64,000 nt of DNA from NCBI GenBank assembly GCA_965224195.1, contig OZ245040.1, positions 1,088,001 through 1,152,000 of the forward strand, in the 5' to 3' direction. Both the position numbers and the translations under genes were made by a program. Positions 3,320 through 16,990 of this stretch are shown here, piece after piece (the stretch's first letter is position 1; the number at the start of each line of letters is the position of its first letter). The stretch is from Nitrosopumilus sp. (GTDB taxonomy: Archaea; Thermoproteota; Nitrososphaeria; Nitrososphaerales; Nitrosopumilaceae). The notes below the pieces were generated by a model. The model was not told the origin of the DNA. It ran no database searches and worked only from the letters and a program-made list of their open reading frames with translations.

Positions 3320-3551
3320 ATGATCTATCCATTGATCACAGCAAAATGTTTGGAAAAGGAGATGTGTACATTAATGGGATTGAAGGTTTTTAGAGTTTTG
3401 TCAAACAGAACATGGCAAAGCATCATGGGGTGAATCCGGGAAAGTTCTTGTTGTACATCAAGGAGATGGAATGCAGATACAACAGTAGAGATGTAGATAC
3501 TTTCTCATTATTGCTTGATTATTGCCTTGGTGATGAATAATTGAGTCACCC
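3320..3551 (+). mobile_element. IS1595-family transposase 3' remnant
   Basis: Translates to SIDHSKMFGKGDVYINGIEGF*...KHHG...YIKEMECRYN, homologous to the IS at 60296-61201. Confidence 0.8.
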
Positions 3552-3776
3552 ATTATTTTTTGTCGCATTGTTTGTAAATTGGCTCAAAGAATGGTAACGG
3601 CAAATGTATGACATTAAGATATTTAATTATTTGATCATGTCTCAAGATATTTTGTTTTTTGATTGTGACTTTATTCATTATAGAATGATCAAAATACAAA
3701 AAACCAGAAGATGTCGTTATAATTTGCACATATCCTAAAACTCTCAACACTCTGACAAAATGATGCCAGCCTATTT

Positions 3777-3980
3777 TCAGATAAACACCACCTTGTGCAT
3801 AATATCTTTTGTAAAAAATTCGGATTTGGATTCTGGAAAGGCCTCTACATATCCGGCAATAATTTTATCCAATTCTGATTTTATCTCCTGTTTGTTTTTT
3901 CCAACAACAATTATCTCTGGTTTGTCGTAGCATTGAGCTAGCAATCCCTGCTCACTTTTTACCAGTTTTACTTGCAAATT
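3777..3980 (-). CDS. HicB-like small protein (true start uncertain)
   Basis: VKLVKSEQGLLAQCYDKPEIIVVGKNKQEIKSEL resembles the HicB N-terminal fold pattern; C-terminal part of ORF 3777..4088. Confidence 0.4.
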   Translation of the reverse strand, partial: NLQVKLVKSEQGLLAQCYDKPEIIVVGKNKQEIKSELDKIIAGYVEAFPESKSEFFTKDIMHKVVFI

Positions 3981-4449
3981 ACCCAAGATATAGGTATAAT
4001 AAATATGATATATATAAAATGTTATTATCCGGATTGATGCTGTCCTGCATACCACACTCCTTGTATCTGAGGATTTTGGAATGTGCAAGCATTACTTTTA
4101 CTTCTTTTGTAGTATATGCTCGCAAGCTAGGTGTCTTTTGCCTCTGTGGTAACATCTTGTAGATTATTTCCCAATTAAGATGAACTCGATTCATCACAAA
4201 GAAGTGTTTTATTCCTCCAAGCTTTGACGGTATGGAGTTAGGGTTTGCAGTCTGCCTCAAATACAGAACATAGTTTTCAAGCATTATCTGTAGATCATTG
4301 ATGAAAATTTCCAATAACTTCTTTTCATTAAATAATCCTGTGAATTTTCTGAATTGAGTAAGGTTTGATGTATAATTCTTTTTGGTATGCTTTGACTTGA
4401 TTGATTCTTCAAACAAGATCATGCTTCTTTGTTTTGTAAGCAATGTCAA
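3979..4449 (-). pseudogene. Tyrosine recombinase, N-terminal fragment lacking the catalytic domain
   Basis: Paralog of 14288..15217 (LTKQRS..LFEESIKSK, ..NPNSIPSK..GIKHF, LRAYTTKEVK), then similarity is lost. Confidence 0.85.
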
Positions 4450-4677
4450 ACATTACATTCTTGTAATCCTTGGCAAAATTTTCTTTGCTTATGTTTGCAT
4501 ATAGCAATATAGAATATGGAGTTTTAATCCTCAATCTCTTGTTTTCTGCTGGTACCACCGTAACGATATTTTCATTTCTTAGTGTCAGATGATTCCTTTC
4601 TTTTAAGTCATGGTGAATCTTTGTTTTTGCAGGTATCTTATCATCTGGTTGCCTGATATTCTTGGAAACTTTGACAT
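4447..4677 (-). pseudogene. hicA: HicA toxin pseudogene
   Basis: MSKFPRISGNQMIRYLQKQRF, then stop/frameshift; paralog of 15310..15546. Confidence 0.75.
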
Positions 4678-4889
4678 TATTGTTTGATAATAAGCATGTT
4701 AAATTCAGTTAAATTTCCACTCTCTTCGGCTGCAAGCTCTACTGCTTCCTTTATATTTTCCATCATATCTCCGAATGTATCGCTTTCTGATACTGCATGT
4801 AGTTCGTCACATCTGCCAACAAATCCGCCATCTTCAAGATCCTTGGTTATTACTACTGTGTAGGTCTTTTTTTGTAGGGTTGTACTCGT
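4677..4889 (-). pseudogene. hicB: HicB antitoxin with start codon mutated to ACG
   Basis: Open frame STTLQKKTYTVVITKDLEDGGFVGRCDELHAVSESDTFGDMMENIKEAVEL; paralog of 15546..15752. Confidence 0.75.
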
Positions 4890-6175
4890 AACGTAGATAG
4901 TCTCAAAAGCGTTAAAAATATTGCTAGTCTTATGCGTATTTTTGTAAGTAAAAAGAGATTATTGATTGCATCAACTCCTGACAGGATTGACGCAATCTTT
5001 TGCTGTTCCTTAATGTTTTTTGTATATGGTAGTTTTGTATTGGCAATTTCATCTTGATTTATTGCATCATAAGTAGTTCCTTGTGAATAAACTAAAAATC
5101 TTTTTTTACTGTGATTGACAAGGTAGTAACAATATAATAGATCGCATTCTATTGGATTTAACGCTGCTACTCCTCTACCTAAGCAACATTTCTTTCTTGT
5201 TAAGTTAATTTCTCCAACAGGAGCCCTTACAGAAAATAGAATCGAATTATCATTTGTAGTTTTTTTAGGATCAGTACACCAAATCATTGGATTTGGATAT
5301 GTTGCTCCAAAATCTGTTACTCCTTGATAGAATGGCAATCCTTTTTCTTCTTTATTATAACTTTCAGATGGTGGAGATTGACCCATTGTAATTTGTAGTA
5401 TCTTTGCAGTAGGTTTGATCTCCCATTCTTCTGGAATCTCATCATATTTTCCAAATAATCCCCTTACCCTCTTGAATTTTTTATGCCCTATCCCCCTGGT
5501 CAGAAGCTCCTGCATTAGACCTTTCTTCAATAGCTCAGCTTTGTTTACAACTTCTTGTGTACATTCAATTAATGCGTCAACTCTAGAGAGGATTGACGCA
5601 ATCTTTTGCTGTTCATGAATTAGAGGCAAGAGAATCAAAATTTGTTTTAGGTTTTTTTTGGATAGTCCATAAACTGAAACTCCTGTAACTCTTGCAATAA
5701 TTTGTTTCGTGACAAAATTCATTGATGTCAGATATGCTCGAAAATCAACCGAAGTATTCCCTTTTACATCTCGGATTGCAATCGTATGTAACCCTGAGAC
5801 TAGTTTCTTTCCATCAACATTTTTCAACAATATGCTTGTGCCAGAACCTTCATGATCCTCTGATGCATCTGCTATGACAAGGTCTCCTTCTTTTAACAAC
5901 GAGATATTTTTTACTTTAATTTTATCAATGAAGGGAATTTCTTCATTTTTGCAATCAAGAAAAATTTTCCATTTTGTATGCATGTCTCCATAATGGATAT
6001 AGTTCACATCACCTTTGTCTTCAAGATCGTTACGTGAGTTTGTAGCTGTGGAAAGGAATTCAAACACTTCCTCAAATGTTTTGGTCTTCCAATCTTCAGG
6101 AATCTCTATCTCTTTTCCAAACAACCATTTAACAAGCTTGTATCCTTTTTGCGGTGGCGTGCAACCATCCTTCAA
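4853..6175 (-). CDS. hsdS: Type I R-M specificity subunit, allele 1 (TRD1a+TRD2a); conserved C-terminal helix replaced by a read-through tail
   Basis: Two IPE(D/E)W...EQQKIASILS units; after SGVDA the sequence departs from the canonical tail seen in 12766..14013. Confidence 0.9.
   Translation of the reverse strand: MKDGCTPPQKGYKLVKWLFGKEIEIPEDWKTKTFEEVFEFLSTATNSRNDLEDKGDVNYIHYGDMHTKWKIFLDCKNEEIPFIDKIKVKNISLLKEGDLVIADASEDHEGSGTSILLKNVDGKKLVSGLHTIAIRDVKGNTSVDFRAYLTSMNFVTKQIIARVTGVSVYGLSKKNLKQILILLPLIHEQQKIASILSRVDALIECTQEVVNKAELLKKGLMQELLTRGIGHKKFKRVRGLFGKYDEIPEEWEIKPTAKILQITMGQSPPSESYNKEEKGLPFYQGVTDFGATYPNPMIWCTDPKKTTNDNSILFSVRAPVGEINLTRKKCCLGRGVAALNPIECDLLYCYYLVNHSKKRFLVYSQGTTYDAINQDEIANTKLPYTKNIKEQQKIASILSGVDAINNLFLLTKIRIRLAIFLTLLRLSTLRVQPYKKRPTQ
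4965..5008 (-). repeat. Palindromic hsdS site S1 (38-bp inverted repeat of S4)
   Basis: 4971-5008 is the exact reverse complement of 13870-13907. Confidence 0.9.
5418..5614 (-). repeat. Long inverted repeat, left copy (contains site S2)
   Basis: 5448-5614 is the exact reverse complement of 13234-13400 (167 bp); 5418-5440 matches 13408-13430. Confidence 0.95.
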
Positions 6176-6278
6176 TGTCTGATTTCAAATGTTATTCCAT
6201 ATTAAGGCATAAACCATCATTTACAAACCCCGATAAATACAATACATTAAAAAACTCTGAAACACATATCAGTCTAAA

Positions 6279-9200
6279 ATGAATTTTGATGTAGGCAAAG
6301 GTCCTGAAGCAACAGAATCAGAACTTCCAGCACTAGAGCAGCTAGTTGCAATGGGATACCAATACATCACACAGTCAGAACTCAACAAAACACGTACAGA
6401 TTATCGTGATGTATTACTCTATGATAGACTTGAGCAAGCAATTAGACGCTTAAATCCTGATTTTGATGATGATGGGATTCATGATGCAGTAGCTCAAATC
6501 GGTGAGGATAGATTCCCTTACAATTTAGATCCTGTTGAAACAAATGAGAAAATCAGGGCAAAACTAATCGGACTATCAAAGTCTGGTGGATTAGAACCCG
6601 TTGTTGTAACTCAAAATTTTGGTGAAGGGCCAGTTCAAAAGGTGGCAAAAATATTTGATCTTGATAATCCACAAAACAATGACTTTGTAGTAACAAACCA
6701 ATTCCAACTAGAAGGATTAAAGAATCCAATCTTTCCCGATGTAACAATTTTTGTAAATGGCATCCCTCTAGTTCAAATTGAATGCAAATCCCCTGCAATA
6801 CCTGACCCAATTGGTGAGGCAGTGGATAGAAAAAATTTCTACAAGTATCAGCAAAGAGGTAACGGGTATGAAAAACTATTTTTCTACAATCACTGTCTAA
6901 TTGCAGCTTGTGGAACTTTGGCTAGAGTTGGAACACTAAATTCTAATTTAAACTATTATTCTAGATGGGCAAAGCCATATCCGTTATCTGTAGATGATGT
7001 AAAACAACTATGCAATGGCAAGGCAAGAGAGCAAGAAATTCTCATTGCAGGATTACTTGCAAAAGAAAATCTGCTAAACCACATGCAAAATTTTGTACTC
7101 TATGATACAATTAACCACAATCGTGTCAAAATGATTGCAAAACATCAGCAATACAAAGCAGTATCTGAATGTGTGAATCGTTTAAAATTAGGCGAGGACA
7201 TCAAAGACAAGGGCGGAATCATTTGGCACACACAAGGTTCAGGTAAATCATTTTCCATGTTATGGTTTGCATCGCAGCTAATGTACAAGTTTGGCAATCC
7301 TCCAATAATGATAGTTACAGACAGAAAACAACTAGACAAACAAATTCATGACACTTTTAAAAAATGTGGATTTCCCAGTCCAATTAGAGCAAAAAATGGG
7401 AAGCACTTGGCAGAACTATTGAAAAACCCTAAAGGCAAAACCATCATGGCAATTATTGACAAGTTTGCAACAGAGCATGGGGCACATACTGATGAGAAGG
7501 TAATATGCCTAGTTGATGAGGCACACAGAAGTCAGTACAAGATAAATGCCGAACAAATGCGAGTATCCATGCCTAATGCCGTGTTTTATGGCTTTACAGG
7601 CACGCCAATTGACAAAAATGACAAGAGTACACCTCGTGTCTTTGGACCAATCATTGACAAGTATGGATTCCGAGAATCCCAAGAAGATGGTGCAACATTG
7701 CCAATCAGGTATCATGGAAGACTATCTGAATTGTTTGTTGAAGGCGGAGAAACAATTGATGAACTCTTTGAGCGAATTATTGGCAGTGATCCTACAGTAA
7801 ATGAAGAACTCAAAGACAAACTCAAAAAACAATGTGCCACAAAGGGAAAGATTGCAGAAGCTCCATCAAGAATCAAACGAATATCCTTGGATTTAGTCAA
7901 ACATTACACTACTCACATTGAACCAAACGGATACAAGGCAATGCTTGTTGCACCATCAAGGGAAGCCGCTGTACTTTACAAAAAAAATTTAGATGAACTA
8001 AACGCGCCACCATCAAAAATTATCATGACTTCTGATTTGGGTGAGAAAGGAAAAGATGAGCAAAGTTGGGATGAATATCGCCTCTCCTCTGAACAAAGAG
8101 AACAAGAAGCAGAACTATTCAAGAGTGCAGATAATCCGACCAAGATCCTAATTGTAGTTGACATGTTGCTTGTAGGATATGATGCACCAATTTGTCAGGT
8201 ATTATATCTTGATAAGGGAATTAGAGAACACAGCTTACTTCAAGCAATTGCCAGAGTAAACAGACCGCATGATGAACCAAAGACACATGGATTAATTGTA
8301 GATTATTCAGGTGTCACCAAAGAATTACAAACAGCACTTGAAATGTTTGAGAAAGATGACATTGAAGGGGCATTGGATCCACTAAATGAATTTCTACAGT
8401 TACTAAAAGATAGACATGCTGATGCAATTGTCTTTTTCAAAGGTATTGACAGAGAAGACAATGATGCAATCATAGAATACTTTGAACCATTAGATCTACG
8501 TGATGAGTTTGAGCAAGCATTCAAGCTGTTTTCAAGGGCATTGGATTCTGTAATGCCTGATAAAGAAGCAGACCCATACATTGAGGATTTCAAGTTCCTA
8601 AGTAAGGCAAGGCAGATAATTCGCACCTATTATGAGGGTGTCAAGCCCAGTACACGCCCATATGCCAAAAAAATCCAGAAATTAATCGATGATCATATTC
8701 GTTCACTATGTATTTCTGAATTAATTAATCCAATGGAGATTACATATGAGAATTTCTTGGCCTTTGTCAAAAAGAAGGTAAAAAGTGAGAAAGCACAAGC
8801 TGCCTTGATCAAAAACAAGGCAATCCAGGTAATTGAAGAACTAAGGGGGAACAATCCTGCATATTATGAGAAACTCTGGGAGAGACTACAAAAAATTATT
8901 GAAGAGGAAGAAAAAAGACGCAGAGAAAATGCACAATACTTTATACATCAAGAAGTATATGCAGAAGTCTATGACAAAGCACTAGCAGAAGAAAAAGAAA
9001 GGCAAAAAGTATTCGGTGATTATGAAGCAACCCAATTTGAATTTGCATTGTATGGAGAATTTAATGAAATAAAAGGCAGTCGTGAGGAATCAATTGAATT
9101 AACAAAAAAGATTCACTCTCAATTGGTTAAAGAAACTGAAATTGTCGGATGGAGAACAAAAAACAGTGTTGAGAAAAACATGAAGACTATACTATATGAT

Positions 9201-9284
9201 ACACTTAGTGTTGCAGGATTTGAAGATGAAAAACTCTCCAAACTTTCAGAGAAGATACTAACATTGGCAAAGAACAGATTATGA
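6279..9284 (+). CDS. hsdR: Type I restriction endonuclease subunit R
   Basis: PD..FVNGIPLVQIECK nuclease motif, HTQGSGKS, DEAH, QAIARVNR. Confidence 0.97.
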   Translation: MNFDVGKGPEATESELPALEQLVAMGYQYITQSELNKTRTDYRDVLLYDRLEQAIRRLNPDFDDDGIHDAVAQIGEDRFPYNLDPVETNEKIRAKLIGLSKSGGLEPVVVTQNFGEGPVQKVAKIFDLDNPQNNDFVVTNQFQLEGLKNPIFPDVTIFVNGIPLVQIECKSPAIPDPIGEAVDRKNFYKYQQRGNGYEKLFFYNHCLIAACGTLARVGTLNSNLNYYSRWAKPYPLSVDDVKQLCNGKAREQEILIAGLLAKENLLNHMQNFVLYDTINHNRVKMIAKHQQYKAVSECVNRLKLGEDIKDKGGIIWHTQGSGKSFSMLWFASQLMYKFGNPPIMIVTDRKQLDKQIHDTFKKCGFPSPIRAKNGKHLAELLKNPKGKTIMAIIDKFATEHGAHTDEKVICLVDEAHRSQYKINAEQMRVSMPNAVFYGFTGTPIDKNDKSTPRVFGPIIDKYGFRESQEDGATLPIRYHGRLSELFVEGGETIDELFERIIGSDPTVNEELKDKLKKQCATKGKIAEAPSRIKRISLDLVKHYTTHIEPNGYKAMLVAPSREAAVLYKKNLDELNAPPSKIIMTSDLGEKGKDEQSWDEYRLSSEQREQEAELFKSADNPTKILIVVDMLLVGYDAPICQVLYLDKGIREHSLLQAIARVNRPHDEPKTHGLIVDYSGVTKELQTALEMFEKDDIEGALDPLNEFLQLLKDRHADAIVFFKGIDREDNDAIIEYFEPLDLRDEFEQAFKLFSRALDSVMPDKEADPYIEDFKFLSKARQIIRTYYEGVKPSTRPYAKKIQKLIDDHIRSLCISELINPMEITYENFLAFVKKKVKSEKAQAALIKNKAIQVIEELRGNNPAYYEKLWERLQKIIEEEEKRRRENAQYFIHQEVYAEVYDKALAEEKERQKVFGDYEATQFEFALYGEFNEIKGSREESIELTKKIHSQLVKETEIVGWRTKNSVEKNMKTILYDTLSVAGFEDEKLSKLSEKILTLAKNRL

Positions 9285-9823
9285 TCAGTAAACTTCGCTA
9301 TGGCAATAGTGTCATAGAATACCAAATTATTAAAAGTAAGAGAAGAAAGACTTCGGAAATTAGAGTGGATGAAAACGGAGTAGAGATTCATACTCCAATT
9401 ACAAAAAAAGATTCAGAGATTCAAGAGATTGTTAACACCAAAAAACAATGGATATTCAAAAAACAATTAGAGTTTACAGACAGAAATAAAAGACAATTCA
9501 AAACTACAACAAAAACTCTTGAATATCTTGAGAAAAGATCTTGGAAGCTGGCAGAGAAGATTGGTGTTAAACCAAAGAAGATAGTAGTAAAAAATCTCAA
9601 ATCAAGATGGGGAAGTGCTGGAAAAACAGGAACAATTACGCTTAATCAGGCGTTAACCAGAATGCCTCCGAGAATAATCGACTATGTGATAATTCATGAA
9701 TTATGTCATTTGAAAATTAAAGGACATTCAAGTAGATTTTGGAGTATTCTTTACTCATACAACAAAGACTATCAAAAAAACATTCTCTGGTTAGAAAATA
9801 ATTTCAAGGATTTGTTGGGATGA
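9281..9823 (+). CDS. M48/YgjP (DUF45) zinc metallopeptidase commonly linked to hsdR
   Basis: KSRWGS, DYVIIHELCHL..GHS. Confidence 0.9.
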   Translation: MISKLRYGNSVIEYQIIKSKRRKTSEIRVDENGVEIHTPITKKDSEIQEIVNTKKQWIFKKQLEFTDRNKRQFKTTTKTLEYLEKRSWKLAEKIGVKPKKIVVKNLKSRWGSAGKTGTITLNQALTRMPPRIIDYVIIHELCHLKIKGHSSRFWSILYSYNKDYQKNILWLENNFKDLLG

Positions 9824-9929
9824 CAAATGACTTGCAATTACTCAAAATAGGAATAAAAATGGGAGCCCACATTTGACATAACCAAAAATAAAAACAGAAT
9901 ATTTTATAAATTAATTATGGTGTTATAGA

Positions 9930-10695
9930 AGTATGTTGGAATTAAAACGTGTTCAGCATATCTTTATTGAATGCTATTCTGAACCTATTGATACCATTGA
10001 AACATGGAACAGAGCTTGTCATACAATTGCAATTAAGAATGATTCCGCATTTTACAACACTACAAAAGGTAGTAGCTCGAATCAGTCAAGAAATATTACA
10101 CACTGCAATTGGCAGATTCATTGGAATGGTATCACCTGGAAAAATATTTGCAGGAATCGATGGTACATGATTTGAGAGAAGACACGCCATACTGCAGATG
10201 TAATCTCAGGCATGCATTTACAAAATGCTCAACAGGATCTGGTATGAAATTGCAGTTGATTTGTGCAGTTGTAATCCAACATAATCCCATATCTCATGAC
10301 ACAAAGCATTTCCCAAAACTGTTTTCTAAAATGCTTGATGTTGTTGCAATGTGGATTATAGTGCTGGACAAGTAATACGATGCAGAACCAATACGCAAGA
10401 TGATCAAAGATGAGAATGGCTTATCTTTGATTCCTGTAAGAAACAAAGATTGTCTGATTAGCAGAACAAAAGGAAGATTACAGAAAACAGATGAGAAGAG
10501 AATTTGATTATTCATATACCATGAGAGAAATAAAACTGGAACGATATTTTCTGTAATTAAGAGAAGGTTTGATTCTGAAATCAAATCGTACAATGATGCC
10601 ATGAAAACAAAAGAGCTGTTGTATCGTGTCTTGGCTTGCAATTGTCATAGGATGCGTTTGATTTCTCTAGTTTGTATGATGATTTCTAGGAAGTC
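9930..10695 (+). mobile_element. Decayed IS5-like DDE element
   Basis: IPHFTTLQK and AGIDGT fragments; 3' part homologous to 18598..19116; right end TGATTTCTAGGAAGTC at 10680-10695. Confidence 0.75.
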
Positions 10696-10772
10696 TTTTA
10701 TCTTAAATACAACTGACTCATCTAGCATCATCAGAATCCATATAACCCTGAATAATAGGTATCATTACAGAT

Positions 10773-12257
10773 TTGTCTGAAAAAGTTACACTTGAGATGC
10801 TAAAATCACACCTGTGGAAGGCATCAGACATTCTCAGAGGCAGTCTTGATGCATCAGAGTATCGAGAACCAGTAATGACCATTCTATTCCTAAAGCGACT
10901 AAATGATAGATTCGAGGAAAATGTTGAGAAACTGATTGCAGATGGAAAATCCGAAAAGGAAGCAAATCAAGACTTTAGACATGACTTTTTTGTTCCAAAA
11001 GAAGCAAGATGGGATAAACTATCTGCAGTAAGAAGCAGAGTTGGAGAAAAAATTGACAAGATTTGCAAACTAATTGAAAAATCAAATGAGAAGCTAGAAG
11101 GTGTTCTGACTAATACAAAGTATTCTGATCCTAGAAAGTATCCTGATGACAATTTAGCAAACTTGATTTCCCACTTTAATTCCCCACGATTAAGAAATTC
11201 CGATTTGGAGAAAGAAGATATTTTCGGGGATGCATATGAGTATCTCTTAGAGCAGTTTGCAGACGCAACAAAGAAGAAAGGTGGAGAGTTTTTTACACCA
11301 CGTGAAGTTGTAAATTTGCTTGTCAATTTGGTAGACCCCAAAGAAGGAATGAGAGTTTCAGACCCCACATGTGGCTCTGGTGGTATGTTGATTGTATCAC
11401 GTCATTACGTGGAGCAAAACAAGGGAAATCCACGTGACTTGGTACTAGATGGTCAGGAATCAAACTATGGAAACTTGGCAATGTGCAAAATGAACATGGT
11501 ATTGCATGGAATTTCAGACTTTACAATAGAGTATGGCGATACACTATCCAATCCTAGACAAGTAGATGGTGGAAAACTCAAAACATATGACAAGGTACTT
11601 GCAAATTTCCCATTCTCAATGGATTGGGATAACAACGGTGCAGAAAAAGATCCTTACAATCGATTCAGATTTGGCATTCCTCCTGCAAAAGGCAAGGCAG
11701 ATTTTGCATTTATTCAGCACATGTATTCGCAATTAAATGAAAAAGGTCAAGCTGCAATCGTCTGTTCTCAAGGCGTTTTGTTTAGGAGTTCAGTTGAGAG
11801 TAAAATTCGTGAAGGACTAATTGCAGAGGATGTAATTGAGGCAATAATTGCGATTCCTTCAAATTTATTCTTTGGAACAGGTATTCCTGCATGTGTTTTG
11901 ATATTAAACAAAAACAAACCAGCAAAAAGAAAGGAAAAAATAATTTTCATTTATGGTGCTAAAGATTACTTGGATGGTAAAAATAGAAACAAGCTTCGTG
12001 ATGAAGACATTACAAAAATAGTCAAGGCATTTTCTAATTTCAAAGATGTTGATAGATATTGCCATGTTGCAGATATTGATGAACTAAAAGAAAATGAGTT
12101 TAACCTTAATGTTCCAAGATATGTAGACATATCAGAACCTGAGGAAGAGATTGATATTCAGAATGCTTGGGATGAACTCAAAGAGACCAATACAGAACAA
12201 GAAAAACTAGAAAAGCAAGTAAAATCAGATTTGATGGAATTGGGAATAAATCTCTGA
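10773..12257 (+). CDS. hsdM: Type I R-M methyltransferase subunit M
   Basis: GEFFTP, DPTCGSGG, motif IV ANFPF, NLFFGTGIP. Confidence 0.97.
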   Translation: MSEKVTLEMLKSHLWKASDILRGSLDASEYREPVMTILFLKRLNDRFEENVEKLIADGKSEKEANQDFRHDFFVPKEARWDKLSAVRSRVGEKIDKICKLIEKSNEKLEGVLTNTKYSDPRKYPDDNLANLISHFNSPRLRNSDLEKEDIFGDAYEYLLEQFADATKKKGGEFFTPREVVNLLVNLVDPKEGMRVSDPTCGSGGMLIVSRHYVEQNKGNPRDLVLDGQESNYGNLAMCKMNMVLHGISDFTIEYGDTLSNPRQVDGGKLKTYDKVLANFPFSMDWDNNGAEKDPYNRFRFGIPPAKGKADFAFIQHMYSQLNEKGQAAIVCSQGVLFRSSVESKIREGLIAEDVIEAIIAIPSNLFFGTGIPACVLILNKNKPAKRKEKIIFIYGAKDYLDGKNRNKLRDEDITKIVKAFSNFKDVDRYCHVADIDELKENEFNLNVPRYVDISEPEEEIDIQNAWDELKETNTEQEKLEKQVKSDLMELGINL

Positions 12258-12317
12258 TTTGTAATATTTGTTCTACAAATTAGAAAATGTTTTGTGCAGT
12301 TATGTGTATACTATCAC

Positions 12318-12704
12318 ATGGAGATGATTATTCTAGTAGGCATTGCAGGAAGTGGAAAAACTACATGGTGTACAAAGTATTTGCCACACCATACAAGAAT
12401 ATCACTGGATGACATAAAAAATCATAACAGAAAACTGGAAGATAAGATGATAATATCTGAACTGGAAAAAGAAAATAATATTGTTATAGATGACACAAAT
12501 CTTACACGAGACATACGTGAAAGACACATTACAATTGCTAGAGAGTATTGTACTTTAGTAAATGCAATTTATTTTTGCATTGACATACAAAAAACATATG
12601 TGCAAAATTTCAAGCGTGAAAAAAAGATACCATGCTATGTTTTAGATCGCCAGAAAAAACAGCTTGAGATACCTCGTGAAGAAGAAGGTTTTGGGTTTGT
12701 CTAG
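12318..12704 (+). CDS. AAA_33 / polynucleotide-kinase-like P-loop protein, possibly 3'-truncated
   Basis: LVGIAGSGKTT, VIDDTNL, EEGF. Confidence 0.75.
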   Translation: MEMIILVGIAGSGKTTWCTKYLPHHTRISLDDIKNHNRKLEDKMIISELEKENNIVIDDTNLTRDIRERHITIAREYCTLVNAIYFCIDIQKTYVQNFKREKKIPCYVLDRQKKQLEIPREEEGFGFV

Positions 12705-12783
12705 TTTTTAAATACATGAAAACTTGTAATCAGAATAGCCCGTTTGACCAGTCTTAAAATATGATGTGAGATGTCGCTTGATA

Positions 12784-14013
12784 ATGAAAAAACCAAAAAA
12801 AGGTTGCAAACTAGTCAAGGGATTATTTGGAAAGGAGATCGAGATTCCAGAAGAATGGAAAGTTGAAAAATTCAATGATAGAATTAAACTAGAATATGGC
12901 TCAAGTTTAACAGCAGAACAACGAGATAATGCAGGTAATCCAGTATATGATTCAGGTGGAATTATTGGATTTCATTCTAAACCTATTGTGAATAATATAG
13001 GAATTGTTGTAGCAAGAAAAGGTTCTATTGGAAATATTTTCTATGAAAAACAAGATTTCTTTCCAATAGATACTGTATATTATATTACAAAAAATGAAAC
13101 GACATTCAATTTACTTTTTCTTTTTTATTACCTAACAAATATGAAATTAGAAAATCTTGCAATAGTTACCTCTAAACCTGGAATTAGCAGAAATGAAATT
13201 TACTCACTTAAAATAATATTTCCTCTACTTCCCGAACAGCAAAAGATTGCGTCAATCCTCTCTAGAGTTGACGCATTAATTGAATGTACACAAGAAGTTG
13301 TAAACAAAGCTGAGCTATTGAAGAAAGGTCTAATGCAGGAGCTTCTGACCAGGGGGATAGGGCATAAAAAATTCAAGAGGGTAAGGGGATTATTTGGAAA
13401 GGAGATCGAGATTCCAGAAGAATGGGAGATTAGAAAGTTAGATGGAATAGGAGAGTTAATTGGTGGTGGCACACCTGATTCTACAAATCTAGAGTATTGG
13501 AATGGAGAAATATTATGGGCAGTTCCCACAGATATTACAAAATTACAAACTAATCTGATTGAAAATACTGAAAGAAAGATTACAAAAAAAGGATTGGATA
13601 ACAGTTCTGCTAAATTATTACCTATCGGTACAGTTTTGATTACTTCTAGAGCTACCATTGGTAAATGTGCAATAACTACAAAATCCATTACAACCAATCA
13701 GGGATTTCAGAATATTATCTGTAATAAAGATCAGAGTAATTTATTCATATTTTATGTAATGAAACATAATCAAAATGTATTAGTGAGATTATCTTATGGA
13801 ACAACATTTTTAGAAATCAGCAAAAAAGATATGCGGAAAATGCTAGTATGTTTGCCGTATTCTAGTTACGAACAGCAAAAGATTGCGTCAATCCTGTCAG
13901 GAGTTGACGCATACATACAGAAGAACCAAGAATACAAGGAAAAGTTGGAGAGGCTTAAAAAAGGCCTTATGCAAAAACTGCTTACAGGTCAGATCCGTGT
14001 AAAAATCAAATAA
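12784..14013 (+). CDS. hsdS: Type I R-M specificity subunit, allele 2 (TRD1b+TRD2b), complete
   Basis: Two TRDs and a canonical LKKGLMQKLLTGQIRV C-terminus; follows hsdM. Confidence 0.95.
   Translation: MKKPKKGCKLVKGLFGKEIEIPEEWKVEKFNDRIKLEYGSSLTAEQRDNAGNPVYDSGGIIGFHSKPIVNNIGIVVARKGSIGNIFYEKQDFFPIDTVYYITKNETTFNLLFLFYYLTNMKLENLAIVTSKPGISRNEIYSLKIIFPLLPEQQKIASILSRVDALIECTQEVVNKAELLKKGLMQELLTRGIGHKKFKRVRGLFGKEIEIPEEWEIRKLDGIGELIGGGTPDSTNLEYWNGEILWAVPTDITKLQTNLIENTERKITKKGLDNSSAKLLPIGTVLITSRATIGKCAITTKSITTNQGFQNIICNKDQSNLFIFYVMKHNQNVLVRLSYGTTFLEISKKDMRKMLVCLPYSSYEQQKIASILSGVDAYIQKNQEYKEKLERLKKGLMQKLLTGQIRVKIK
12819..13425 (+). repeat. 40-bp perfect direct repeats bracketing TRD1b (12819-12858 and 13386-13425)
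   Basis: GGGATTATTTGGAAAGGAGATCGAGATTCCAGAAGAATGG occurs twice. Confidence 0.9.
13234..13430 (+). repeat. Long inverted repeat, right copy (contains site S3)
   Basis: Reverse complement of 5418-5614 except for a 7-nt block. Confidence 0.95.
13870..13911 (+). repeat. Palindromic hsdS site S4
   Basis: TGCGTCAA-TCCTGTCAGGAG-TTGACGCA. Confidence 0.9.
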
Positions 14014-14041
14014 TTTCTGAGTTATAACATATTAAAAATTA

Positions 14042-14248
14042 TTATTGTCTATCTTTATTATCGGATTTTTTCCAGATTTGTATTTGTCCACCATATACAT
14101 CATTGTCATATGCCATTGAAGGAATTTGAGCATAAAATCCTGTACGGCCAGTGCTAAAAGTTTTAGCTGGCAATAATACCTCATGTTCTTTGCCATCAGG
14201 CATTGTTAGTTTGGCTGAGACAAAATTTGGTTTCTCATTAGACATCAT
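14042..14248 (-). CDS. Small hypothetical protein downstream of the recombinase
   Basis: 68 aa with KTFSTGRTGFY motif, predicted beta-rich; co-oriented with the recombinase. Confidence 0.65.
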   Translation of the reverse strand: MMSNEKPNFVSAKLTMPDGKEHEVLLPAKTFSTGRTGFYAQIPSMAYDNDVYGGQIQIWKKSDNKDRQ

Positions 14249-14287
14249 TTGTTTTTGTTGTCTGTGGCTTGTTAATTAATTGAAAGT

Positions 14288-15217
14288 TTATCTGATCTCT
14301 ATTTTATACATTATTTTCTTAAATTCGGTAAATAACTCCTTCAATGTTGGTGTAAAGTAAATTCCATCAAGGCCATTTTTGTGACCCATTAGTTTCTCTG
14401 CAATGTTATAGTTTATGCTATTGTCCAGTTTTAGTATGGTATTATATCGCTTTCTAAATCCATGATCCGCTTGTACATCAAAACGATTGTCATACTTTAG
14501 TCTTGTAATGTTGCTTTTTTGTATTGTTCTGTATATTACAGAGCGAACTCCACTCCATCCTATCTGCTTAGGGCGAAATTTGCATGTAGCAAATATGGGT
14601 GTGTCTTTGTAAAATATCTCACCCTTACTTTTTCGATAGTCATGATATGCATTTACTGCTTTTGTTGCTTGTGGTGTGAGAAATGCCCAATATTCTTCTA
14701 TATCTCCAGCATAGAGCAGTACTGCTGTACAGCCATAAGGCATTTTCATCATATGTCTTATTGACAAATCATGATCAAAGATGCCTATCCTGGCACCAGT
14801 AACTGCAAAGAAATGAATTAACGCCTTGTTTCTAGGATTTGTTGCGCTATGTATTAGTTCTTTTACTTCTTTTGTCGTATATGCTCGCAAGCTTTGTGTC
14901 TTTTGTTTTTGTGGGAACATCTTTGTGATTATATTCCAATTGAGGCTGATCTCATTCATAACGCAAAAATGCTTTATGCCATGAAATTTTGACGGTATTG
15001 AGTTAGGATTTGTGGCGCGTTTTAGTTCAATCAAGTAATTTTCTAGCTTGTATTGTAATTCCAAATTAGGCATAGTAACTAATTGATTTTGATGTGAAAG
15101 ATCTGCAAATTTTAGAAATGAATCAAGATGTGCGGTATAATTCTTTTTTGTATATTTTGATTTGATTGATTCTTCAAATAATAGAGAACTACGTTGTTTA
15201 GTTAGTAAAATACTCAT
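14288..15217 (-). CDS. Tyrosine recombinase/integrase, intact
   Basis: Catalytic residues TGAR, HGFRK, LMGH and GIYF. Confidence 0.93.
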   Translation of the reverse strand: MSILLTKQRSSLLFEESIKSKYTKKNYTAHLDSFLKFADLSHQNQLVTMPNLELQYKLENYLIELKRATNPNSIPSKFHGIKHFCVMNEISLNWNIITKMFPQKQKTQSLRAYTTKEVKELIHSATNPRNKALIHFFAVTGARIGIFDHDLSIRHMMKMPYGCTAVLLYAGDIEEYWAFLTPQATKAVNAYHDYRKSKGEIFYKDTPIFATCKFRPKQIGWSGVRSVIYRTIQKSNITRLKYDNRFDVQADHGFRKRYNTILKLDNSINYNIAEKLMGHKNGLDGIYFTPTLKELFTEFKKIMYKIEIR

Positions 15218-15309
15218 GTATTACTTTATGGCAAAATGTTTATTTCTGCACGTATGTTTATGAAACTAGATTGTTTTGATTTTTATAATCATATTATTTT
15301 TACAGCATA

Positions 15310-15546
15310 TTATTTTACATTTCCTTTGTTGTGATCACCTACAAATTCATCCCTGGTTATTTCTACAGCTTTTAATATTTGTAAAAACAAACCTGGTTTT
15401 ATCATATTTTGGCCTGCAGGAATAGTTACACGTATACTGATATTTGCTAATGTAACATGACTGCCTTTTCTATTTTTTACAAAGAATCCCTTTTTAATTA
15501 AATATTTTATCATCTGGTTGCCTGATACTTTTGGAAGTTTTGTCAT
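15310..15546 (-). CDS. hicA: HicA-family mRNA interferase toxin
   Basis: KLPKVSG..MIKYL.KKGF...RKGSHV. Confidence 0.9.
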   Translation of the reverse strand: MTKLPKVSGNQMIKYLIKKGFFVKNRKGSHVTLANISIRVTIPAGQNMIKPGLFLQILKAVEITRDEFVGDHNKGNVK

Positions 15547-15752
15547 TACTTTAGTACAATAAGCATATTAAATTCATCTTGGCTGCTTTCAGATGCAAGC
15601 TCTACAGCTTCTTTGATATTTTCCATTATCTCGCCATACGTTTCGCCTTGAGAATAGGCATGTAATTCCTCACATGTGCCAACAAACCCGCCATCTTCTA
15701 CGTCTGCTGTAACTATAATGGTGTAAGTTTTTTTTTCCAGTGTAGTACTCAT
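15546..15752 (-). CDS. hicB: HicB-family antitoxin
   Basis: EDGGFVGTCEELHAYSQGETYGEIMENIKEAVEL; likely start MSTT at 15752; TAATG coupling to hicA. Confidence 0.9.
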   Translation of the reverse strand: MSTTLEKKTYTIIVTADVEDGGFVGTCEELHAYSQGETYGEIMENIKEAVELASESSQDEFNMLIVLK

Positions 15753-15824
15753 TGTATACACATTGTGCACATATGCAAATATATTAAATATACTGTTGAT
15801 TTTATGCATAATTTCAAATATGTT

Positions 15825-15977
15825 ATTGCATCAACTCCTGTCAAGGATTGACGCAATCTTTTGCTGTTCATAGATTAGAGGCAAGAGAATCAAAATTTGT
15901 TTTAGGTTTTTTTTGGATAGTCCATAAACTGAAACTCCTGTAACTCTTGCAACAATTTGTTTCGTGACAAAATTCAT
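15825..15977 (-). pseudogene. hsdS: Third hsdS fragment: 3' end of TRD1a plus site S5
   Basis: 15844-15977 matches 5589-5722 with 3 mismatches in 134 bp; the outer arm ATTGCATCAACTCCTG matches S1. Confidence 0.9.
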
Positions 15978-16190
15978 AGACGTGATGGAAAACATTTCAG
16001 ATTCTCTTGATGATAGTATGATGGAGGAAACTACATCAGTTTATACAGACAAGGGATTGACAGTGTAGCCATCAGAGATCATCTGAAAAACAAAAGCATT
16101 GTTCCATGCATTCCAAAAAGAGCTTTCAAGAAAAACAACAGTAAAAAATACAGTCACAAAAACTACAACAGGGCGAGATTTGTAGCGGAG
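15978..16190 (+). mobile_element. IS5-family transposase orfB fragment
   Basis: FIDVMENISDSLDD...VYTDKG, homologous to 17920..18316. Confidence 0.8.
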
Positions 16191-16990
16191 CGGATGATGT
16201 TGAATGCGTCTTTGAATGTCTCAGAGAGAGGCTCAGCTGAAATCTTTCTGTCCCTGTATGATTTTTGGCCTTCTTTAGAACCATAAAACTCTGCAAGTTT
16301 GATGCTTTCTGGCAGCGTATGTGGATACTGTTTGGCTGGAATGATCAATCGGGAATGTTTCTTGTTGGCTGAATCATACAGTGAATCATCATCATATGTA
16401 GGATCTGCCAGAATGTTTTGGAATAATCCTGCAAGCGGTTCTGTTATTGCATTGAATTTTTGAGAATCATGAATATTTGCAGTGCTAACATCAGAGAACA
16501 GCGGAACTACCAGTTTTCCAGTAGAGCCATCAGTATCAGTTCCTGCAACTGGAAGACGGTTGCTTCTGATGCCTGGTTTGTGCCAGGCAGGGCCTGCAGT
16601 TTTCAGCACGGAGATGTCAACTGGTGCAGATGTGTAATCGGCTAGTCTCTCTGAGACAGACAGACTGCCCATGGTGCTGATAATTTCAGATGTTGGAAGA
16701 TTCTGAAGTCTTCTGCCGACTGTTCTTCTGTTTGGGATCTGTTGCACCCTGCAAGCCTTGAGCAGTATGTAATCATTGCACTTGATTGAAAAAAATAACG
16801 AGACGTGTCGTTACTTGGAACTCTCATCCTAGACCTTGTGATGAACAATTGTATCACAAGAACAGTTGAACAGGCATACGGCCTGCCAGGCCTAACCATA
16901 TCCCCAACAAATACAATACTCCAGCCGGTTCTTTTGCGTCTTCGATAAAATAGATGAGTAGGCATGATTTTGATGGTGTTGCGTGGCGGT
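16190..16990 (-). mobile_element. Decayed DDE transposase, frameshifted
   Basis: GRPYACST, IPNRRTVGRRL, STANIHDS, ILADPTYD, YRDRKISAEP. Confidence 0.75.

Follow-up and report, generated by a model that had tools for sequence, protein, structure and literature searches.

A dyad repeated in the hsdS sequences of a Nitrosopumilus restriction-modification locus is a candidate core site of a Xer-like recombinase

Judged by its architecture, the Type I restriction-modification (R-M) locus in the stretch of DNA analysed here is a probable phase-variable hsdS inverton. The stretch (the window) comprises 64,000 nucleotides, positions 1,088,001 to 1,152,000 of contig OZ245040.1 in a Nitrosopumilus metagenome-assembled genome (MAG). 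Complete hsdR, hsdM and hsdS genes were all recognised by Pfam. The hsdS gene and a second, silent copy (hsdS') lie in inverted orientation, carry different target-recognition domains (TRDs) and share about 40% identity overall, the inverted repeats I1 and I2 are situated within the conserved regions that bound the TRDs, and a recombinase gene is part of the locus (14288-15217). The initial annotation of this DNA, made from the sequence, described five copies of a palindromic site hidden in the hsdS coding sequence (S1 to S5; Table 1). Based on the conservation of these dyads in related loci and on the way in which hsdS homology ends at them, we regard the dyad as the probable core site of the Xer-like tyrosine recombinase, an enzyme that would invert the DNA between the hsdS copies. 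The central bases of the site may in turn set the choice of partner.

The pattern TGCGTCAA-N(10-15)-TTGAYGCA matched five times in the window and in none of 100 shuffles, which bears out the number of copies described, and a search of the whole 2,067,682-base genome returned no copies of the dyad pattern beyond these five. The arm TGCGTCAA alone occurs 14 times genome-wide and its complement 13 times, with the five sites supplying 3 and 5 of these occurrences, respectively. S2, S3 and S4 are perfect dyads and consequently match on both strands. Just as had been annotated, all five sites fall on codons for IASILS(R/G)VDA (frameshifted in S5), and the spacer TCCTCTCTAGAG is shared by the mid-gene sites S2 and S3, whereas TCCTGTCAGGAG marks the terminal-type pair S1 and S4; the spacer of S5 reads TCCTTGACAGGAG. 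The statement that hsdS homology stops at an outer arm of distinct sequence in S1 and S5 was likewise correct, this arm being TTGATGCA followed by AT. S5 resembles S2 in its upstream flank (96% identical) but S1 in its outer arm and downstream flank (74-76%), and the switch between the two flank types falls inside the site itself, whose spacer has one extra base. To judge from its flanks, S5 looks like the relic of a mid-by-terminal exchange, as a single case. The five copies are not independent events, because all of them copy one conserved hsdS segment.

The nucleotide-level conservation of the site became apparent in a comparative set of 401 genomes of the class, in which 32 further recombinase matches were listed at 52% identity or more. 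Recombinases at or above this identity form a clade with 100/100 support against more distant paralogues, confined to family f1. We examined 23 recombinase loci, namely 20 of the 32 listed matches, chosen for their long contigs, and three of the window's own genome; the 401-genome tallies include genomes G326, G231, G132, G364 and G283, loci from which were not used. An hsdS gene lies within 10 kb of the clade recombinase in 17 of the 23 loci, and the related loci include MAG records assigned to Nitrosopumilus, Nitrosopumilaceae and Cenarchaeum. A pattern that allowed any codon for IASILSx[VI]DA retrieved 41 sites in 18 of the 401 genomes, with nearly identical codons throughout (ATT GCR TCA ATY CTN TCN nnn GTT GAY GC). 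The exceptions were three single-base changes (one TCG for Ser and two ATC for Ile) and one ATT (Ile) at the [VI] position. For 32 of the 41 sites a gene or partial copy of the clade recombinase was present within 13 kb, two had a decayed remnant nearby, and seven had neither.

This uniformity extends to codons that could have varied freely. Among 43 distinct site sequences, Ser was encoded by TCA in 43 of 43, Val by GTT in 39 of 39, Gly by GGA in 29 of 30 and Ile by ATT in 40 of 43, and the Leu of the site was always CTN and never TTR. The Leu codons located 21 and 24 codons downstream took six different forms each in 11 sequences. The synonymous difference per pair was 0.27 inside the ten codons versus 0.51 outside (p 0.011), and for mid sites 0.29 versus 0.52 (p 0.006), p values that overstate the case since the site sequences are related. 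Among the 41 sites the only frequent arm changes were GCG>GCA and GAC>GAT, both of which represent CpG decay; the pattern of substitutions suggests that each arm of the ancestral site contained a CpG, the genomes having a G+C content of about 34%.

Orthologous M-S-R-YgjP operons with a single hsdS (loci L192, L217 and L205) provided a control. None of the three has the dyad, and no second hsdS and no Pfam integrase were found within 8 kb, tblastn picking out a distant integrase-like open reading frame (ORF) in L192. These operons encode IASILSNIDS, IASILSNIDN and IASILSYVDY with other codons (GCT, TCT, ATA, TTA), match the arms at 4, 3 and 4 of 8 positions, and do not conserve the terminal motif even as a peptide. 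Loci L224 and L188, selected by tblastn as recombinase-free controls, were rejected because Pfam shows other integrase ORFs in them. L224 (G160:C1:1135000-1154999) is syntenic with the window (hsdS, AAA_33, hsdM, inverted half hsdS, hsdR, YgjP) and holds three conserved sites; in place of the clade recombinase it has another, short ORF of the Phage_integrase family (16130-16726). Among bacteria, at least 13 IASILSx[VI]DA sites among the matches listed scored 5-7 of 8 with varied codons. The peptide scan of the genome collection also admitted the common bacterial HsdS motif IATILSDMDA (Thr, Met), giving at least 119 loci, and therefore yields no usable bacterial denominator.

A second hsdS family, of the EcoEI type with the motif KIESIFxxIDA, carries TGAATCAA-N12-TTGAYGCA and goes with the same clade of recombinases, whose members do not group according to hsdS family. 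The terminal site of this family (for example L014:7670-7701) is a coding palindrome that encodes IESIFGRIDA on one strand and IASILPKIDS, which is close to the family-1 peptide, on the opposite strand; each of its arms is itself a small palindrome (ATTG-N3-CAAT). A hybrid site at L050:8181 (+), encoding IESILSGVDA, has a left arm of family 2 (TGAATCAA) and a spacer and right arm of family 1; a family-1 terminal site that lies inverted 7 kb away has exactly the same spacer.

The edges of the site were delimited by the repeats and by the truncated hsdS copies. In the window, the 42-nt inverted repeat I2 holds S1 and S4 and ends exactly at the outer arm, and the 212-nt repeat I1 (95% identity, about 165 nt identical) surrounds S2 and S3. 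When the silent and expressed terminal sites were paired in six loci, they had 30 nt in common (ATT..GCA) with one mismatch each, and beyond these 30 nt they shared only 0-12 nt upstream and 0, 0, 0, 13, 0 and 2 nt downstream, so that the terminal repeats are essentially the size of the site. In ten silent copies hsdS homology was lost directly after GCA in seven and 2-13 nt later in three, never inside the site (0 of 10), and seven different downstream contexts followed. Where no reading frame constrains them, the two bases after GCA frequently read AT and so lengthen the arms to 10 bp. Mid and terminal spacers differed by at least 2 nt in all 19 loci having both, and partner spacers agreed completely in all 11 mid pairs and in 9 of the 13 terminal pairs, the remaining four terminal pairs showing a single mismatch each. 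Position 16 of the terminal type is A, G or T, alike in both partners of a locus, and since the variable positions 13 and 16 are symmetric in the centre, an 11-6-11 or a 10-8-10 reading fits. The proposal of the initial annotation that the dyad is the crossover site, with partner choice set by the spacer, is thus supported by synonymous conservation, site-sized terminal repeats, the truncation edges, the loss of the dyad in single-copy operons and the spacers of the 19 loci, but it falls short of direct demonstration, as neither an inversion junction nor a cleavage position was observed.

The enzyme expected to act on these sites has its catalytic residues intact: R143, H252-x-x-R255, H279 and Y287, those of a tyrosine recombinase, are invariant among 16 sequences. 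Its best family match, a weak one, was archaeal XerA (NF040815, E 4.7e-13), with 49.3 bits against an equivalog cut-off of 220, so that it is not an XerA orthologue, and a sequence search of the PDB gave no match. The predicted structure has a mean predicted local distance difference test score (pLDDT) of 65, with the catalytic part under 50; its fold matches were headed by XerA (5hxy, 4a8e), followed by IntI, Cre, XerH and lambda Int, and at this model confidence the ranks carry little weight and support only a tyrosine recombinase fold with XerA first. The protein would work in the manner of Xer or Cre, without being an XerA orthologue.

In the mechanism that we propose, the inverted arms ATTGCRTCAA(T) and (R)TTGAYGCA(AT), of 8 to 11 bp each, would flank a centre of 6-8 bp, which in this hsdS family takes the form CT-N-TC-N-GG. 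Each arm would be bound by one recombinase monomer, strands would be exchanged across the centre, and exchange would need identical central bases in both partners, as with lox, FRT and dif. Given such a need, S2 and S3 would pair only with each other, and so would S1 and S4. The C-terminal helix of HsdS (13912-14013) lies outside every invertible segment, and inversion would therefore decide which TRD pair joins this helix; inversion at S1/S4 and/or S2/S3 could generate up to four HsdS specificities. The binding, the cleavage positions, the homology rule and the inversions themselves are what we infer from the comparisons above. A more far-reaching idea, possible in our view although doubtful, is that the DNA site and not HsdS function fixes the peptide IASILSxVDA, or IESIFxxIDA in the other, unrelated Type I family, and that a portable module consisting of the outer half-site, the small ORF upstream of hicA, hicA and the Xer-like recombinase makes invertons of motif-bearing hsdS genes. 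The peptide fixed in this manner would include the final Ala and the terminal motif copy, both of which drift in single-copy orthologues, and portability of the module would explain its spread over two Type I families and many Nitrosopumilaceae genomes.

Several observations weigh against the dyad being a recombinase core site, and they are gathered here together with the alternatives that they favour. Sequencing data of the sampled population (three contig runs and one raw Hi-C run, examined across 3500-16500) contained no strand-switch joint at any dyad, but the contigs were built from 31-letter words and the raw Hi-C depth was about 2-10x; since 31-letter words are shorter than the 42-nt repeat, the contig runs cannot show inversion. 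In contigs of minor depth, 12861 (equally 13428) is connected to 13870 through unknown letters, a hint of TRD replacement with an upstream boundary that may lie elsewhere than at S3. The window recombinase scores 19.6 against the Pfam PF00589 cut-off of 27.1, other members of its clade (L048, L054, L062) scoring 30.6, 29.2 and 29.0. Synonymous conservation specifically in hsdS genes linked to a recombinase was a check named by the initial annotation. The fixed codons and the three single-copy operons lacking the dyad are in line with it, but the dyad persists without a nearby clade recombinase in L206, and also in L188 and L224, two loci that have another Pfam integrase ORF. The conserved-codon sites moreover stem from related genomes and are not independent. 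Further points concern the symmetry itself, and these would be accommodated if the dyad were incidental, a by-product of peptide conservation in HsdS, of codon bias towards A+T and of common descent, with any rearrangement driven by homology (RadA) or by another feature of the repeats. Five of the eight arm pairs follow from the peptide x-A-S-I...[VI]-D-A if Ser is TCN; the 28-mer pairs third codon positions with third codon positions and leaves only three such pairs free (1/28, 4/25 and 7/22), and the preferred codons ATT, GCA, TCA, GTT and GAT give the rest. As so many pairs are forced by the peptide, dyad symmetry by itself is weak evidence, and it is the comparison of relatives that carries the case. 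Co-variation of the free pair 4/25 was not found in the 41 sites (23 matched versus about 20 expected; G-C 13, A-T 10, G-T 7, A-C 11). A perfect 8/8 dyad with other arms occurs at the same HsdS motif position (IASIFRAVDA) in Furfurilactobacillus siliginis (L137/L225); considered as a repeated site, it was rejected as a single partnerless copy in that genome, and it demonstrates that perfect arms can arise without a system. Finally, the mid-gene repeat is long enough for homologous recombination. We nevertheless judge a by-product unlikely, given that four- and six-fold degenerate codons are fixed inside the site and saturated 10-25 codons away, that the dyad is lost in single-copy orthologues, which spell the same peptide with different codons, that silent copies, in which the frame means nothing, still retain the final Ala (GCA), and that the terminal repeats are only about 30 nt, which we judge short for homology-driven exchange.

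Alternatively, the site could serve mainly for the attachment of a mobile cassette, made up of outer arm, small ORF, hicA and recombinase, that enters motif-bearing hsdS genes; integration would then have produced the hsdS' ends at S1 and S5, and inversion would play a secondary part or none. This would account for the occurrence of the module twice in the window and its recurrence beside silent hsdS ends in many loci, for the stop of hsdS homology at an outer arm that differs there (TTGATGCA-AT), for the 6 of 23 recombinase loci without hsdS, often near transposases, in a multi-copy family, and for the service of two hsdS families by one recombinase clade. A free or circular form was not seen, however, and a second cassette end was not identified; partner sites are inverted and enclose different TRDs, a layout shared with known hsdS invertons, and the mid-gene sites, abutted by no cassette, are conserved equally well, all of which makes an attachment site quite improbable. 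The initial annotation had also seen a hint of single-strand recognition like that of integron attC sites. The hairpin on which this hint was based folds exactly as it claimed: S4 as single-stranded DNA forms 12 pairs with one bulged, extrahelical G (-10.1 kcal/mol, z -5.9), 12-pair hairpins with one bulged G are predicted for S1 and S5 as well (z -4.2 to -5.9 for the three), and in the fold comparison of the recombinase the integron integrase structure 2a3v came seventh. The extended hairpin was absent from related sites, though, with a z of -0.5 for the terminal site of L014 (a comparison that leaves out L059, L061 and L047), and neither the inner stem nor the bulge is conserved, mid-type spacers such as TTCTTTCTAATG and TCCTTTGTAATG not being palindromic. 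The recombinase resembles archaeal XerA best in family and fold, a model of pLDDT 65 lending little weight either way. Recognition as a folded strand is in our opinion very improbable, and we retain the reading of the dyad as the probable core site of the Xer-like recombinase.

The genes and sites of the locus are collected in Table 1. The silent hsdS' lacks the C-terminal conserved helix, and its frame exits hsdS homology right after S1. The decayed second recombinase copy is about 62% identical to the intact recombinase over its N-terminal 120 aa, and the adjoining remnants at 4463-4934 are a diverged copy of 15310-15809. At the other end, the short hsdS fragment is broken off at about 15984, adjoining the transposase fragment. 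Two further loci of this kind are present in the genome, L014 and the decayed L015.

Table 1. Features of the hsdS locus in the window (positions are those of the window)
Feature	Position	Strand	Remarks
Decayed second recombinase copy	3777..4449	-	two overlapping ORFs; direct repeat D5
Remnants of hicA and small upstream ORF	4463..4934	-	tblastn; direct repeats D1, D3 (74-76%)
Silent hsdS', two target-recognition domains	4853..6175	-	Pfam PF01420, two stretches
S1	4967..4994	-	terminal-type site of silent hsdS'; outer arm TTGATGCA then AT
S2	5573..5600	-	mid-gene site of silent hsdS', within 212-nt inverted repeat I1
hsdR	6279..9284	+	Pfam HSDR_N, SWI2_SNF2, T1R_D3-like
YgjP-like metallopeptidase gene	9281..9823	+	adjoins hsdR in related operons too (conserved)
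hsdM	10773..12257	+	Pfam N6_Mtase, HsdM_N
AAA_33 kinase-like gene	12294..12704	+	between hsdM and hsdS; same position in L224
Full-length hsdS with fixed C-terminal conserved helix (13912-14013)	12766..14013	+	PF01420, two stretches
S3	13248..13275	+	mid-gene site of full-length hsdS; partner of S2
S4	13884..13911	+	terminal site of full-length hsdS; partner of S1
Xer-like tyrosine recombinase	14288..15217	-	
hicA toxin-family gene	15310..15546	-	Pfam PF07927, 38.6 bits vs cut-off 27
Small ORF upstream of hicA	15546..15809	-	putative antitoxin, by position only
S5	15827..15855	-	degenerate hybrid site, 13-nt spacer; direct repeats D2 (96%), D1/D3 (74-76%)
hsdS fragment, 3' end of TRD	15844..15983	-	140 nt; 96% identical to 5589-5728
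DDE transposase fragment	16163..16747	-	Pfam DDE_Tnp_1, E 1.1e-4

The hicA gene and the small ORF sit between the silent hsdS end and the recombinase, both in the window (15310-15809 and 4463-4934) and elsewhere (L014:10892-11342; L046-L065), and in roughly half of the 23 loci tblastn located them adjacent to the clade recombinase. Profile searches gave no family match for the small ORF, which is conserved beside hicA in related loci. From this arrangement the two look like an addiction-type pair that travels with the invertase. In four loci of different genomes, genes for the TATA-binding protein (TBP) directly adjoin the clade recombinase (L051:8239-8841, L058:10700-11236, L060:11816-12367, L064:10569-11276).

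The population data held some additional features. Contigs at about 10-30% of the main depth join 13284-13335, 13870 and 12861 and the mirror places 5008-5564; the joints 5008>5564, 13284>13870 and 12861>13870 have unknown letters between their sides, and loose ends revealed a variant of the central conserved region, with about 34 other letters after 13335 and before 13298. On the evidence of these minor-depth contigs, the sampled population is heterogeneous in hsdS. The contigs of all three runs also break at 10195-10340, in the interval that separates the YgjP-like gene from hsdM; raw reads differ on both sides of this strain-variable stretch, with loose ends at 10195, 10259 and 10339.

In bacterial pathogens, the inversion of hsdS as a switch of Type I specificity has been studied thoroughly. 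Here the comparative data delimit a candidate site of 28-32 bp and predict which of its central bases set partner choice, and the module is present in many genomes of a globally abundant nitrifier group. If our reading is correct, the site offers a directly testable minimal substrate for an archaeal invertase, and inversion would create heterogeneity in epigenetic state and phage defence in ammonia-oxidising archaea.

When set beside known recombination systems, the dyad resembles integron attC in that some copies are predicted to form an imperfect palindrome with one extrahelical base. It differs in that this base and the stem are not conserved, whereas attC has a conserved fold and a cassette array beside intI; here the fold varies among related sites, the array is absent, and the recombinase is closer to XerA than to IntI. 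In Cre/lox, FLP/FRT and Xer recombination, identity of the central bases between partners is needed, and sites with different centres do not cross-react. Cores of the lox or FRT kind have two inverted binding arms around an overlap of 6-8 bp in which the strands are cut; arms and a variable centre that might serve in this way are present here, the arms being shared and the centres differing between mid and terminal sites in 19 of 19 loci. Compared with the sites of Cre and FLP, the arms are shorter (8-11 bp of symmetry), and there is no sequence relation to these enzymes beyond the common fold. The likeness to Xer/dif lies in the best family and fold matches, which are XerA, and in a site of 28 bp that can be read as 11-6-11, the geometry that the available text of PMC2958812 gives for archaeal dif (11-6-11 = 28 bp); the same text lists Thaumarchaea among the archaea without xerA. 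The dif site is present as a single chromosomal copy for dimer resolution, whereas the present sites are five in number, lie in coding sequence, all within the hsdS sequences of one locus and in inverted pairs, and would be expected to support inversion instead of dimer resolution.

The closest likeness in layout is to the known hsdS invertons, namely S. pneumoniae cod/ivr with PsrA, Mycoplasma pulmonis hsd and those of Bacteroides, which, as far as the available parts of PMC4948785, PMC7672463 and PMC7096588 describe phase-variable hsdS invertons, form the background to this locus. The available text of PMC7096588 describes a PsrA footprint that covers a 15-bp repeat plus flanks and names no dyad core, and in the accessible portions of the hsdS-inverton literature we found neither palindrome wording nor a compact invertase core site that was named. 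Archaea were excluded from an inverton survey, according to the part available (PMC9881135); the accessible sections of a review of archaeal R-M systems (PMC11033074) make no mention of phase variation, inversion or a recombinase, and those of a review of archaeal tyrosine recombinases (PMC8371274) make none of hsdS or restriction. Judged by titles and the beginnings of abstracts, no paper on Nitrosopumilus and hsdS dealt with this topic, and the supplements of two surveys (PMC7672463, PMC9881135) may list archaeal loci. Known invertons and the present locus both have hsdS copies in opposite orientation with different TRDs, place their inverted repeats in the conserved region that follows each TRD, and include a gene for a tyrosine recombinase. 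The present locus differs by its ammonia-oxidising archaeal host, by its Xer-like recombinase accompanied by hicA, by an invertible segment that contains hsdR and hsdM, and by a terminal repeat that amounts to one dyad of 28-30 bp. Most likely, then, we are dealing with an hsdS switch of a type already known, here in ammonia-oxidising archaea and with an unusually well delimited site.

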